IMG/VR virus record: IMGVR_UViG_2531839668_000006
Direction: 5' to 3' (one strand)
DNA from: a virus
Lineage: Duplodnaviria; Heunggongvirae; Uroviricota; Caudoviricetes
Length of the DNA stretch: 10,301 bases
Part shown: positions 214 through 8,853 of the stretch, in pieces
Position numbering within the stretch: the first letter of the stretch is position 1
Layout of the letters: each line of letters opens with the position of its first letter
The notes under the pieces: model-generated
Told to the model about the DNA's origin: nothing
What the model saw: the letters and a program-made list of their open reading frames with translations, nothing else
Database searches by the model: none
Position numbers and translations under genes: made by a program

Positions 214-621
214 TTATCGGATAATTTTTTTCATATATAGAAGCTGTAACTCATCTTCATCAAAAACGCTATAAGGTTCACAGTAATTCTTAAATTCCTC
301 ATAAGTTAAGAAATCGTGAATATCTTTAATTTCCTGAACCACACACACTGAAGTTGCAACAGATCTAAACCGAGCTGGACCTTGTCCATCTGAAGTACGA
401 TAAATAAGCAAATTATCTCCAGGCTTTAGGCTGGCTACCCCATGCATTTTTGTTAAGTATACTTTTTCAATACTGTTGGTATGTGATATATCAGCGATGA
501 TACCAGCACTCTCATTGTGGAGTTTTGACTCAGGGAAAAGACGTGTATGCCATGCAGGATAAATACTTAATAGATAATTTCTCCCCTGCAATTTGACTAA
601 GGGATAATTAGCATAGCTCAT
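214..621 (-). CDS. Hypothetical protein (135 aa), second gene of AT-rich cargo cassette; fold unassigned, weak PUA-like/ASCH-like beta-barrel impression
   Basis: ATG at 621..619 preceded by AAGGAG with about 7 nt spacing (reverse complement of 628..633). Visibly AT-rich compared with the phage core. Fold suggestion rests only on loose motifs (LQGR near N-terminus, LKPGDNLL loop). Confidence 0.5.
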   Translation of the reverse strand: MSYANYPLVKLQGRNYLLSIYPAWHTRLFPESKLHNESAGIIADISHTNSIEKVYLTKMHGVASLKPGDNLLIYRTSDGQGPARFRSVATSVCVVQEIKDIHDFLTYEEFKNYCEPYSVFDEDELQLLYMKKIIR

Positions 622-624
622 TTT

Positions 625-1095
625 TTACTCCTTCCATACCAAGTTTTTAAAGTATACACCTTCTTGCCCATTAATCGTAGAAAGATTTTTCCTCGCCTTT
701 AAAACAAAACCATATTTAGTTAATAAGCGAATTAATCCTGAATGCTTATCAAATATAGTAACATATACTTCTTTTAGTTTGTTTCTCATAGCAAATTGAA
801 ACATAATTCTAATAAAACGCTCTCCAAGTTTGGTTCCATGAGCATCGATTTTAAATGTGCCAAGCTTTACTCGCTTCATCTTTGGAAACGTTGGAGTCAT
901 ATCACTCAACTCTTCATCTTCTATTTTCAAATAGAGAAAACCATCGATTTCACCTAATTCATTACGTGATACAAACGCCTTATTTTTACCTTTTGAGAGA
1001 AACCAAACATCAAATCCTTCATAATCAGCTCTTAGGCTGTTAAAAAACGGATCTTTTAAATCGATATCACTAAAAAATTTTTCCTCGATAGACAT
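625..1095 (-). CDS. GNAT-fold (acetyltransferase-like) protein, 156 aa, first gene of AT-rich cargo cassette
   Basis: ATG at 1095..1093 with an upstream AGAGGAA Shine-Dalgarno-like sequence. C-terminal half has GNAT-like topology: VKLGTFKID, an HGTKLGER loop, then EVYVTIFDKHSGLIRLLTKYGF resembling GNAT motif B. Called from motif memory only. Confidence 0.5.
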   Translation of the reverse strand: MSIEEKFFSDIDLKDPFFNSLRADYEGFDVWFLSKGKNKAFVSRNELGEIDGFLYLKIEDEELSDMTPTFPKMKRVKLGTFKIDAHGTKLGERFIRIMFQFAMRNKLKEVYVTIFDKHSGLIRLLTKYGFVLKARKNLSTINGQEGVYFKNLVWKE

Positions 1096-1143
1096 CCAGT
1101 TCCTCTTCTAATGGCAGCGAGCAAGTGACCTTATCCTTACATG

Positions 1144-1170
1144 TTAATAGATAACCACAGCTGTAGGCAA
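1144..1170 (-). promoter_or_regulatory. Candidate sigma70 promoter for the cargo cassette (-35 TTGCCT, -10 TATTAA on - strand) with an 8-bp palindrome ACAGCTGT in the spacer
   Basis: Reverse complement of 1165..1170 is TTGCCT and of 1144..1149 is TATTAA, 15 bp apart, about 45 nt upstream of the ATG at 1095. Palindrome ACAGCTGT lies at 1157..1164. Confidence 0.25.
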
Positions 1171-1461: not shown

Positions 1462-2139
1462 CTAGAACGTGACAGCCTTGTCAAAGCCAGAAATAATTGT
1501 ATAAGAAATAGACGAGTTATCAGCCTTGTTCACTTTGAACTTGGCACCTTTGTAAGCGATAACGTCACTTCCCTTAGAATCTACAGAAAAATCTGTTGTA
1601 AATGCTGCACGAGCCATATCGTTTGCAAATTCACGATAGGTGAACTTCATTACACCGCCTGCATTTCCATTGTATTCGATAGTCTTAACCAATGAGTTAC
1701 TAACTCGACACAGCCCATCAGGAACACGTTTGATAGAAATTTCTGATGCAGTATAAGAAGTACCATTTGGCGGTGATATCTCATTTTTTGCAGCATCGTA
1801 ACTAACATAATCAACATAGTTACCGATTTGCCCATAGAGATTTTTTAACGCAACAGCTTGAGGGTTATGATAATTGCGGTAAATTCCATTCCCCTCACTG
1901 CAATATGTACCAGCAGCGATAGAAGACAATGCACCATTAGCCGCACCAAGTTCTAGTACGTCCGTTTTAAATCCAGTAGCAGATGTGATAATGGGATCGC
2001 CCATGTAGGCGGTAGCACTTTGCCCAATAGCAGGCTTCACCACTTCAATAGCAGTGATATTTCGGTTAGAAGCATGTGGCACGCAACCAGTTAGGATTAC
2101 AGCAAGAGATATTGGTAACGCTACATTATTAATTTTCAT
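1462..2139 (-). CDS. Predicted lipoprotein, 225 aa, unknown function (cargo between SOS operon and cos-like site)
   Basis: Internal ATG at 2139..2137 gives MKINNVALPISLAVILTGC, a typical lipoprotein signal peptide with lipobox LTGC. Mature part is Ser/Thr/Asn/Gly-rich. The longer ORF from 2193 would bury the signal peptide. Confidence 0.7.
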   Translation of the reverse strand: MKINNVALPISLAVILTGCVPHASNRNITAIEVVKPAIGQSATAYMGDPIITSATGFKTDVLELGAANGALSSIAAGTYCSEGNGIYRNYHNPQAVALKNLYGQIGNYVDYVSYDAAKNEISPPNGTSYTASEISIKRVPDGLCRVSNSLVKTIEYNGNAGGVMKFTYREFANDMARAAFTTDFSVDSKGSDVIAYKGAKFKVNKADNSSISYTIISGFDKAVTF

Positions 2140-2162
2140 TTTTAGCCTATTATTCTTTTCTT

Positions 2163-2197
2163 GACAAAAAACAAGGCGATATCTGATTGACATCGCC
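2163..2197 (-). terminator. Candidate Rho-independent terminator of the SOS operon (- strand)
   Basis: Stem GGCGAT (2175..2180) / ATCGCC (2192..2197), extendable by a wobble pair; the - strand RNA continues UUGUUUUUUGU (plus-strand A-run 2165..2173). Stem is short, loop about 11 nt. Confidence 0.4.
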
Positions 2198-2252
2198 TCT
2201 CACTCATATGTAACCCTTTTTGATTAGTAAAAACAAGCGTCTATTGACAAAA

Positions 2253-2486
2253 TCAATGCAGCCAGCTGTCGTCTTCCCACACCTTCTGCATAATTTTCAT
2301 CACTTGTTTTCTTTCTTCGTCCAGTTGCAGTCCGGTCAGTTCCACACCGTTAGAGCTACCTTTACGGATACGGATTACCGTTTTGGGATACAGGGGGCGC
2401 AGATTGCGGTAAAGCTCGGATTCAAGGGCGTCCAGGGTAGACTGGCTAATCTTCTGCTCTTTATCGATCATTATTTCAATGCGCAT
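2253..2486 (-). CDS. dinI: DinI-family protein (77 aa)
   Basis: From the internal ATG at 2486..2484 the product MRIEIMIDK...LDALESEL...ERKQVMKIMQKVWEDDSWLH aligns along its length with E. coli DinI as recalled (MRIEVTIAK...IDALAGEL...QETWESADDW). GAGGTG lies 6 nt upstream of the ATG. Confidence 0.85.
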   Translation of the reverse strand: MRIEIMIDKEQKISQSTLDALESELYRNLRPLYPKTVIRIRKGSSNGVELTGLQLDEERKQVMKIMQKVWEDDSWLH

Positions 2487-2496
2487 AAAAGTCACC

Positions 2497-2685
2497 TCAG
2501 TTGATGACATCCATTGAGCGGTTGTATTCGTGGCTTCTGATTTTTGCCATGAGTTCATCAGTCAATTCAGAAACCCACTGCAGAGCCAGCCCCTTCTCTT
2601 CATCACTACACTCACTAGCCGCTACAAGCTTAAGAAAAAAATCAATGCGCTGGAGCTTCAAAGACTCCAAAAAATAGTCCTGCAT
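2497..2685 (-). CDS. Small protein (62 aa), first gene of the LexA-controlled operon; positional analogue of the 186 Tum antirepressor
   Basis: ATG at 2685..2683 with a strong AGGAGG about 6 nt upstream (reverse complement of 2692..2697). Sits directly downstream of a LexA-box promoter and 10 nt upstream of the DinI-like gene. No family recognised from the sequence. Confidence 0.55.
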   Translation of the reverse strand: MQDYFLESLKLQRIDFFLKLVAASECSDEEKGLALQWVSELTDELMAKIRSHEYNRSMDVIN

Positions 2686-2726
2686 CTTTCCTCCTATGAC
2701 ACCACACGCAATACTGTATGCATAAC

Positions 2727-2769
2727 CACTGTTTATATTTACAGTATATAATAATCTTACTGATGTAAA
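2727..2769 (-). promoter_or_regulatory. SOS promoter with LexA operator (CTGT-N8-ACAG) overlapping the -10 element
   Basis: 2727..2746 reads caCTGTttatatttACAGta, matching the LexA box consensus TACTGT(AT)4ACAGTA. On the - strand a -35 TTTACA (2769..2764) and -10 TATACT (2748..2743) put the operator across the -10 and start site. A CTGT half-site also lies at 2714..2717. Confidence 0.7.
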
Positions 2770-8158: not shown

Positions 8159-8283
8159 GATGCAACATTCCTCGTTTAATGATGATTAATCAGGACGAAT
8201 ACGGATCGTTTGTACTTTGTGAACACCATAAACATACGATCGCAAAATGAAATCGTCAAGATAAAAGTTCACTTGGAGTGACC
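8159..8283. promoter_or_regulatory. Lysis-lysogeny switch region between apl and cI with candidate pR and operator-like inverted repeats
   Basis: Candidate - strand promoter: -35 TTGACG (reverse complement of 8254..8259), 17 bp, -10 TATGTT (reverse complement of 8231..8236). Inverted repeat GATCGTTTGT (8204..8213) / ACATACGATC (8232..8241), one mismatch, overlaps that -10. A second repeat TTAAT-N4-ATTAA lies at 8176..8189. No convincing rightward promoter for cI found. Confidence 0.45.
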
Positions 8284-8853
8284 ATGAATTTGGAGAAAGG
8301 CGGACGAGGCGCTATAGAGCGCATGGTAGAAGCTTATGGATTCAAAACTCGACAGGCGTTGTGCGATCATTTAGGAATCTCTAAAAGTACACTCGCCACA
8401 CGCTACATGCGTGACTCATTCCCAGCAGAATGGGTAATCCAGTGCGCCCTTGAAACGGGCACCTCGCTTAATTGGCTCACAACCGGACATGGTTCAAAGC
8501 AAACTTCAGGTAATACAAATACTATGGAAGTTGCTAAATATGTATTATCTGATGGTGCCTTGCGTGAAGACGGTTTTTATATTTTTGATAAGGGATTTCT
8601 ACCCTCTACGTTTAAAAAACCTTTTGTCATCACAGATAACAATTCTGAATTTATTTGTGATAAAGAATTTGATGATATACGTGATGGTAAATGGGTAATA
8701 AGTATTGATGGCGAAGTAACGATCCGTGACATTACTCGTTTACCCGGTGGAAGAATCTTCGTCGAGGGTGGAAACAGAGCCTTCGAATGTAAGATAGAAG
8801 ACATTGAAATAATTGGTAAAATTATAAGTTTAACAGTCAAGTATGTTAAATAG
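8284..8853 (+). CDS. cI: 186-type CI repressor (189 aa)
   Basis: N-terminal HTH region (AYGFKTRQALCDHLGISKSTLATRYMRDSFPAEWVIQCALETGTSLNWLTTG) matches the 186 CI-type repressor pattern as recalled. Length matches 186 CI (about 192 aa). GGAG lies 5 nt upstream of the ATG at 8284; the ORF-track start at 8278 is a GTG. Confidence 0.8.
   Translation: MNLEKGGRGAIERMVEAYGFKTRQALCDHLGISKSTLATRYMRDSFPAEWVIQCALETGTSLNWLTTGHGSKQTSGNTNTMEVAKYVLSDGALREDGFYIFDKGFLPSTFKKPFVITDNNSEFICDKEFDDIRDGKWVISIDGEVTIRDITRLPGGRIFVEGGNRAFECKIEDIEIIGKIISLTVKYVK

Follow-up and report, generated by a model that had tools for sequence, protein, structure and literature searches.

The question raised by this locus is whether two short neighbouring open reading frames (ORFs), one of 62 aa and one of 77 aa with likeness to DinI, are the halves of a single broken tum gene of the type carried by phage 186, or two genes that work separately. 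Both lie in a stretch of 10,301 nucleotides, referred to here as the window, which is a segment of a Fels-2-type (Felsduovirus) P2-like prophage. A first-pass annotation made from the sequence had suggested that the pair might be a split or frameshifted antirepressor of the Tum type. One part of this suggestion stands, as both ORFs are colinear with 186 Tum. The other part does not, and neither a frameshift nor a sequencing error nor a pseudogene is needed, the region being very probably the SOS-induction operon of the prophage in a natural two-cistron form.

A two-gene Tum operon is as such already known from the annotation of tumA and tumB in phage PsP3 and from the account of Lemire et al. 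2011 (PMC3121763), in which Tum is said to resemble an antirepressor fused to DinI and, citing Bunny et al. 2002, tum is said to be split in two in Fels-2 and PSP3. In this paper, we report the layout and predicted control of the operon, the relationship of its two products to 186 Tum, the state of the junction between the two genes among relatives and the mechanism that these features suggest.

Layout and predicted control of the operon

The coordinates of the two ORFs, their different frames and the 10-nt gap between them were all confirmed in the sequence (Table 1), the tumB-type ORF being in the +1 frame relative to the tumA-type ORF. The other observations behind the idea of a broken gene were likewise correct. 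For 25 codons 5' of the ATG at 2486, the DinI frame contains no stop; this stretch overlaps the end of the 62-aa ORF and gives a 101-aa ORF when read from an ATG at 2558. The summed lengths of the two products (62 + 77 = 139 aa) are near the 146 aa of 186 Tum and, on paper, one 1-nt deletion or 2-nt insertion within 2497..2558 joins both ORFs.

Table 1. Features of the tum-type locus and of related genes in the window
Feature	Position	Strand	Remarks
gpA-type replication endonuclease, 804 aa	2839..5253	-	conserved neighbour upstream of tum-type genes
-35 hexamer TTTACA of putative p95-type SOS promoter	2764..2769	-	read from the sequence, by analogy with 186 p95
-10 hexamer TACTGT of putative p95-type SOS promoter	2746..2741	-	17 nt after TTTACA; the first six bases of the LexA box
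LexA (SOS) box TACTGTAAATATAAACAGTG	2727..2746	-	only CTGT-N8-ACAG in the window
Shine-Dalgarno AGGAGG of the 62-aa gene	2690..2695	-	4 nt ahead of ATG 2685; by sequence inspection
tumA-type gene, 62 aa	2497..2685	-	ATG 2685; TGA stop 2499..2497 included
Intercistronic spacer, 10 nt, GGTGACTTTT	2487..2496	-	holds Shine-Dalgarno-like GGTGA of the DinI-like gene
tumB-type gene, 77-aa DinI-family protein	2253..2486	-	ATG 2486; stop codon included
Intrinsic terminator, 11-bp stem and T-run	2163..2199 (stem region 2199..2173)	-	3' of the two-gene operon
CI-type repressor	8278..8853	+	191 aa

Between the CI-type repressor and gpA, the window carries Cox/Apl-like and CII-like genes, several small genes and a Dam methylase. 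The 62-aa ORF lies directly 3' of the A replication gene and behind a LexA-box promoter, which is the position of a TumA gene, and the gene order A, SOS promoter, tum is common to the window, 186, PsP3, Fels-2 and DuoHS, a prophage of E. coli HS. A region of 631 bases around the two genes is 97-98% identical to Fels-2 and to many P2-like phages of Klebsiella, Salmonella and E. coli, and 99.8% identical to one E. coli chromosome (complete genome).

The LexA box of E. coli has the consensus TACTGTATATATATACAGTA. The box in the window agrees with this consensus at 17 of 20 positions and is identical in Fels-2 and E. coli HS. Within a sample of 33 species (Enterobacterales loci, one genome per species, collected with a single-protein query at an identity of at least 69% and hence close relatives), a CTGT-N8-ACAG motif was present no more than 150 nt upstream of the 62-aa gene in 25. 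The hexamers TTTACA and TACTGT would form a promoter of the p95 type; the -35/-10 pair at 2769..2741 was not listed by a consensus promoter scanner. In 186, p95 consists of TTCACA and TACTGT separated by 18 nt, against 17 nt in the window, with the LexA site annotated from the first base of the -10 hexamer. The box stands upstream of both cistrons and a terminator is absent between them, while the terminator 3' of the operon, a strong one (-18.3 kcal/mol on folding; z -3.6; equalled by 0 of 200 shuffled sequences), occupies the same position as t95a of 186. Judged from its sequence, the operon is predicted to be under LexA control. An Rfam scan of the whole window returned zero RNA families and a PADLOC scan of both tum proteins gave no match.

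Relationship of the two products to 186 Tum

The 77-aa ORF had been called DinI-like in the first-pass annotation, and this is borne out by a match to the Pfam family DinI (PF06183) that spans profile positions 1-63 of 63 and reaches 81.3 bits (E 6.6e-23), the gathering cut-off being 24.2. With this full-length profile match the ORF is a member of the DinI family, and it also matches phrog_189, 'RecA filament binding protein DinI', with an E value of 1.5e-29. Aligned to 186 Tum, the ORF covers residues 71-145 without a gap (41% identity, E 3e-24), its M1 falling on Tum V71, which is the annotated GTG start of the truncated product 186 Tum95.5 and has a perfect AAGGAGG ahead of it in the 186 DNA. 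The DinI homology associated with the 186 tum operon is a domain of Tum itself, its C-terminal half. The DinI-like protein most likely modulates RecA filaments, a role drawn from E. coli DinI and a GenBank note ('modulates SOS induction') that accompanies the truncated forms of 186 Tum.

The homology of the 62-aa ORF to the N-terminal half of 186 Tum rests on profiles, a pairwise BLASTP comparison of the ORF with 186 Tum having given no match. The ORF belongs to phrog_698 (E 9.7e-38). A profile of its family, built from 27 diverse members, was aligned by hhalign to 186 Tum from residues 5-45 to residues 5-45 with a probability of 94.7% (E 5.9e-8), and 186 Tum in turn matches phrog_698 over its residues 7-44 at equal profile positions (E 2.7e-5). 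A further family, phrog_8554, is matched by both 186 Tum and the 62-aa ORF (E 1.1e-8 and 1.4e-11). The core common to the 62-aa family and Tum is approximately L-x-R-I/V-E/D-x-x-x-R/K-L-x-A-x-x-x-C-x-x-x-D/E-K/R-E-x-A-L-x-W/L-I/V-A/S-E-L/I. When 186 Tum was searched by tblastn against phage MLG42, in which the two genes share a frame, one alignment ran through both genes and covered residues 5-145.

In an AlphaFold2 model, the 62-aa protein is predicted to fold as a two-helix hairpin (helices 2-23 and 28-61, pLDDT 88) with the conserved Cys26 and Trp37 at and just past the turn. Pfam has no family for the ORF, and the family profile matched no sequence in the PDB; Foldseek of the model against the PDB returned generic helical hairpins only (best E 0.93), which are functionally uninformative. 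The CI of the window is 32% identical to 186 CI over 175 residues (E 8e-38) and matches phrog_4 and phrog_34054, both transcriptional repressor families. By analogy with 186, this CI would be the target of the 62-aa antirepressor, and the 62-aa protein may bind it directly; binding of CI was shown for 186 Tum by Shearwin et al. 1998, as cited in PMC3121763.

It is very unlikely, in our estimate, that the DinI-like protein triggers induction, with the 62-aa ORF encoding a peptide of accessory or regulatory function. Among 186, PsP3 and Fels-2, conservation is higher in the DinI-like half (~41% identity as opposed to similarity at profile level), and this half is the only gene labelled in many automatic annotations, e.g. 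as 'SOS induction modulator'. However, the 62-aa gene has stayed intact both in 13 of the 33 species, which lack a DinI gene behind it, and in 4 others, whose DinI gene is truncated. The 'tum' of DuoHS was deleted in frame from start to stop by Ortiz de Ora et al. 2025 (PMC12055606), who report that induction by mitomycin C was lost. The deleted gene has the locus tag ECHS_RS04495 in the supplementary file of that paper, and this tag is given in RefSeq as a 189-nt gene directly upstream of the DinI-like ECHS_RS04500. The two products of the window are identical to these at 61 of 62 residues and at 100%, respectively. Given the start-to-stop fusion design, a polar effect of the deletion on the DinI-like gene is unlikely. 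A requirement of the 62-aa gene for induction of the present prophage would thus be carried over from a literature result on a near-identical gene. The antirepressor activity of PSP3 was also assigned to the upstream gene (PMC3121763, where a personal communication is cited second-hand), and according to the same source the dinI homologue and the antirepressor of the Gifsy prophages are separate genes as well. The reading in which the first gene encodes the antirepressor is hence retained here.

State of the junction among relatives

The same pair of genes recurs in 55 phage records. Of 5426 complete E. coli genomes, 1125 have it, a BL21 derivative among them, and two genes are annotated in every E. 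coli row among the matches listed for these 1125 genomes. The two-gene layout also occurs in 20 of the 33 species, with frame offsets of 0 in 6, +1 in 5 and +2 in 9. Among the phages and prophages compared individually, tumB is in the +1 frame relative to tumA after a spacer of 10 nt in the window, Fels-2 and DuoHS and of 13 nt in ST13-OXA48phi12.1, and in the +2 frame after 11 nt in SopEPhi, SEN8 and ST437-OXA245phi4.1. The two genes share a frame, after a TAG stop, in MLG42 (12 nt) and PsP3 (3 nt). While the spacer (3-13 nt) and the frame vary in this way, the lengths of the ORFs are constant in the relatives at 62 and 77 aa. A G-rich Shine-Dalgarno sequence lies right behind the stop codon in nearly all of the spacers, and the downstream DinI start, where recognisable, is always ATG.

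Purifying selection on both genes is strong, pairwise dN/dS being 0.03-0.08 in the first gene and 0.02-0.09 in the DinI gene (dS ~0.8-2.1). The end of the 62-aa protein is fixed, with 120 of 120 close homologues among the matches listed sharing one stop position; longer homologues have N-terminal extensions only, which come from miscalled starts reading through the promoter. In a search of 1.84 billion cluster representatives, a C-terminal DinI extension was seen in 0 of 67 representatives of the family. Distant phages (ESSI-2 relatives and Yersinia vB_YenM_06.16-2) carry the small gene only, in one case annotated as 'tum protein'.

The 25 open codons upstream of the DinI start are uninformative, since a random frame stays open for that length with a chance of ~30% ((61/64)^25) and the corresponding stretch in relatives is 25, 25, 22, 21, 14, 6, 4, 3, 2 or 1 codons long. 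A hairpin at the junction (2508..2491, covering the TGA and the DinI Shine-Dalgarno) was considered as a stimulator of coupling or frameshifting and was rejected, with a z of -1.24 and no counterpart in three relatives.

Programmed recoding, either a +1 (or -2) ribosomal frameshift or a bypass of the stop codon, could yield a minor fused TumA-TumB product besides the separate ones. Ribosomes slipping by +1 at any of the last 24 codons, the AAC-TGA stop included, would enter the DinI frame in the window, Fels-2 and DuoHS. In PsP3, MLG42 and six other species, where the genes share a frame, only a stop codon (TAG except for one TAA) stands between them, so that its read-through might in principle yield a fusion. 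We nevertheless hold recoding to be extremely unlikely. The offset that would have to be overcome varies by lineage (0, +1 or +2), so that no single conserved mechanism could serve them all, and in many relatives the open stretch upstream of the DinI start is just 1-6 codons. There is no recognisable slippery or prfB-like motif, and an Asn-tRNA on AAC cannot re-pair on ACU. The ATG of the DinI gene is kept wherever its start is recognisable and a Shine-Dalgarno sequence is kept in nearly all spacers. Neither a conserved frame nor a slippery motif nor a stimulatory structure, the marks of a programmed frameshift, was found at this junction.

The rival reading, that the locus is a pseudogene or an assembly artefact, one 186-type tum having been interrupted through a frameshift mutation or an error in sequencing, has practically no chance of being right even though the summed length, the open codons and the single indel that would suffice all speak for it, and even though indel-type breaks are seen in these two genes in CP025900 (phage 500465-1): it fails because the pair is widespread, the offsets vary at constant ORF lengths, the dN/dS values are far from the 1 toward which a pseudogene would drift, a fused form is absent from the family, the 62-aa gene occurs alone and the near-identical DuoHS prophage is inducible and needs its 62-aa gene (PMC12055606). 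Besides, the linker of 186 Tum bears no resemblance to the tail of the 62-aa protein, the profile alignment ending at residue 45. The relatives uniformly encode two separate genes that work independently.

Proposed mechanism, evolution and known counterparts

For the natural two-cistron operon favoured here, the following course of events may be proposed. In the lysogen, LexA bound to the box that overlaps the -10 hexamer would keep the operon off, and following DNA damage the cleavage of LexA would allow one mRNA to be made. The first cistron would be translated into the helical-hairpin antirepressor of the TumA type, which would sequester the 186-type CI and thereby free the lytic promoter for lytic growth. 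From its own Shine-Dalgarno sequence and ATG, 10 nt downstream, the second cistron would yield a free DinI-family protein of the TumB type that most likely acts on RecA filaments and so adjusts how strong or how lasting the SOS signal is, with no action on CI. The Tum of 186 consists of the same two modules in one frame, with an internal Shine-Dalgarno and GTG at the junction releasing the DinI-like half. We infer CI sequestration and the action on RecA filaments in this family from 186 Tum and E. coli DinI, respectively.

The fused form is limited to the 186 clade (~28 phage records at an identity of at least 90%), while stand-alone antirepressor modules, some beside a DinI gene and some not, are found in several PHROG subfamilies. 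As the stand-alone modules are widespread, the fused form is confined to 186 and an internal ribosome-binding site and start are retained there, the two cistrons more probably fused in the 186 lineage than came apart elsewhere. Most proteins recovered with residues 1-70 of 186 Tum as query are short or partial, which makes this search unfit for counting fused against split forms. It also returned many stand-alone 'Tum protein' forms of 63-78 aa within the subfamily of the 186 N-terminal module, and because of these the junction has probably changed its state more than once. We attach very little probability to the further idea that fused and split forms are functionally distinct designs rather than neutral variants, with a minor fused TumA-TumB made in the lineages that share a frame (usually across a TAG) or are capable of a +1 shift; in its weaker form, this idea holds that an ancestral two-cistron operon was recently fused to give 186 Tum, the internal AAGGAGG-GTG start being the relic. 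If true, fusion to TumB would anchor the antirepressor on RecA filaments, and the threshold of induction would be tuned in this way.

The consequence of the present reading is mainly one of annotation. Most of the matches listed, including all of the listed E. coli rows, call the 62-aa gene a 'hypothetical protein', and an occasional one calls it 'levan regulatory protein'; a proper label would be TumA-type, LexA-controlled antirepressor. About one in five complete E. coli genomes has a Fels-2-type prophage, as do many strains of Klebsiella and Salmonella. The 62-aa gene is very probably the switch through which DNA damage, including that caused by antibiotics such as fluoroquinolones, induces P2-like prophages of this type. 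Autonomy of the antirepressor module accounts for its three states, namely next to a DinI gene, on its own, and joined to DinI in one protein.

Among known systems, there is a likeness to the dinI-gfoA/gftA operons of the Salmonella prophages Gifsy-1 and Gifsy-2, which are described in PMC3121763 as LexA-repressed and as pairing a small antirepressor with a DinI homologue. These operons differ from that of the window in having dinI first, in the families of their antirepressors and repressors, and in belonging to lambdoid rather than P2-like phages.

Phage 186 (Tum AAC34187, 146 aa; operon U32222) shares with the window the genomic position, the promoter architecture, the order of the modules and the type of CI. 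It differs in having both modules in one reading frame, joined by a linker of ~25 residues, whereas the window has two cistrons, in which the TGA at 2499..2497, the 10-nt spacer and the +1 change of frame separate the modules. The N-terminal modules are similar at profile level only. Besides the full-length protein, 186 also yields the free DinI-like Tum95.5 from an internal AAGGAGG and GTG, a start that aligns with the ATG of the DinI gene in the window. The gene 3' of the operon is orf97 in 186 and an unrelated putative lipoprotein (phrog_1353) in the window; a 243-aa ORF of the window was compared with orf97 because of its equal length and was rejected as a homologue (E 4.5).

The locus of PsP3 (NC_005340, PSP3p39 and PSP3p40) has the same plan as the window, i.e. 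a LexA-box promoter after the A gene, an antirepressor gene of ~60 aa and, immediately behind it, a 77-aa DinI-family gene. Its tumA is annotated as 'similar to 5' end 186 tum; UV induction of prophage' and its tumB as 'similar to dinI and 3' end of 186 tum'. The DinI ORF of the window closely resembles TumB, whereas TumA belongs to another subfamily, phrog_1993, linked to the family of the window at E 0.002. Its match to the 62-aa family profile is weak (hhalign probability 8%, E 0.004) and the two are connected mainly via common PHROG matches. The PsP3 pair shares a frame with a TAG plus one codon between the genes, in contrast to the 10 nt and +1 offset of the window.

The loci of Fels-2 (STM2728/STM2726.1) and DuoHS (ECHS_RS04495/ECHS_RS04500) are essentially that of the window, at 97-99% DNA identity. 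Their spacer and frame offset are identical to those of the window, as are the DinI protein (100%) and 61 of the 62 residues of the first protein, Fels-2 differing by S51T and DuoHS by N62S, and the cargo genes 3' of the operon differ. The promoter of DuoHS is also identical to that of the window, and the Fels-2 record already cross-references TumB.

Possible interrupted defence gene in the cargo region

In the P2-like prophage, the variable cargo region contains two ORFs of 156 and 135 aa that lie in the same frame, with one in-frame stop codon and one further codon between them. The two were found to match successive segments of one longer family. Against phrog_6345 (352 positions), the 156-aa ORF covers positions 3-153 and the 135-aa ORF covers 161-291, and against PDC-M11A (PDLC04419; 357 positions), a candidate defence gene from PADLOC, the corresponding matches are to positions 11-160 (E 1e-58) and 166-296 (E 1e-48), respectively. 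From its sequence, the arrangement resembles a candidate gene for anti-phage defence that is broken by a nonsense codon, or else a natural two-cistron variant. Close to the left end of the window, a further ORF starts (MKVLLSIKPEYAESILSGKKK...) and continues beyond it.

Coordinates of ORFs outside the two-gene operon
Feature	Window position	Strand
Left-edge ORF	1..~110	minus
135-aa ORF	621..214	minus
156-aa ORF	1095..625	minus
156-aa and 135-aa ORFs together	214..1095	minus
243-aa ORF after the operon	1462..2193	minus

Start of the 243-aa ORF downstream of the operon

The true start of the 243-aa ORF is probably its 19th codon, the ATG at 2139. The sequence at this ATG, MKINNVALPISLAVILTGC, shows a lipoprotein signal and a lipobox, and residue 19 is also the first residue of the phrog_1353 match, while the upstream ATG is contained within the intrinsic terminator hairpin that follows the operon. 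No match to the 243-aa ORF was obtained in Pfam or PADLOC. The 186 gene orf97 is of equal length and occupies the equivalent position, but has no homology to it.

State of the operon in related records

In four loci (L020, L029, L032 and L046, from Serratia, Enterobacteriaceae, Enterobacter and Leclercia, respectively), the DinI-like gene is cut to 8-60 codons beside an intact upstream 62-aa gene, which suggests that the DinI partner is dispensable and decaying whereas the antirepressor gene is retained. Among the records seen, the locus is genuinely frameshifted only in CP025900 (L007; Escherichia phage 500465-1), where several indels at about 700..1150 of the locus disrupt the 62-aa gene as well as the DinI gene in comparison with all other relatives; these indels are most likely assembly errors.

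Internal start within 186 tum

The fused tum gene of phage 186 contains a perfect Shine-Dalgarno sequence, AAGGAGG, 5 nt upstream of the GTG start of Tum95.5, the free DinI-like product (L001 5278..5295; record positions 29277..29294). To judge from the sequence, this motif resembles an intercistronic ribosome-binding site that the fused gene has kept. The Tum95.5 GTG start is the exact counterpart of the start of the separate DinI-like gene in the window.
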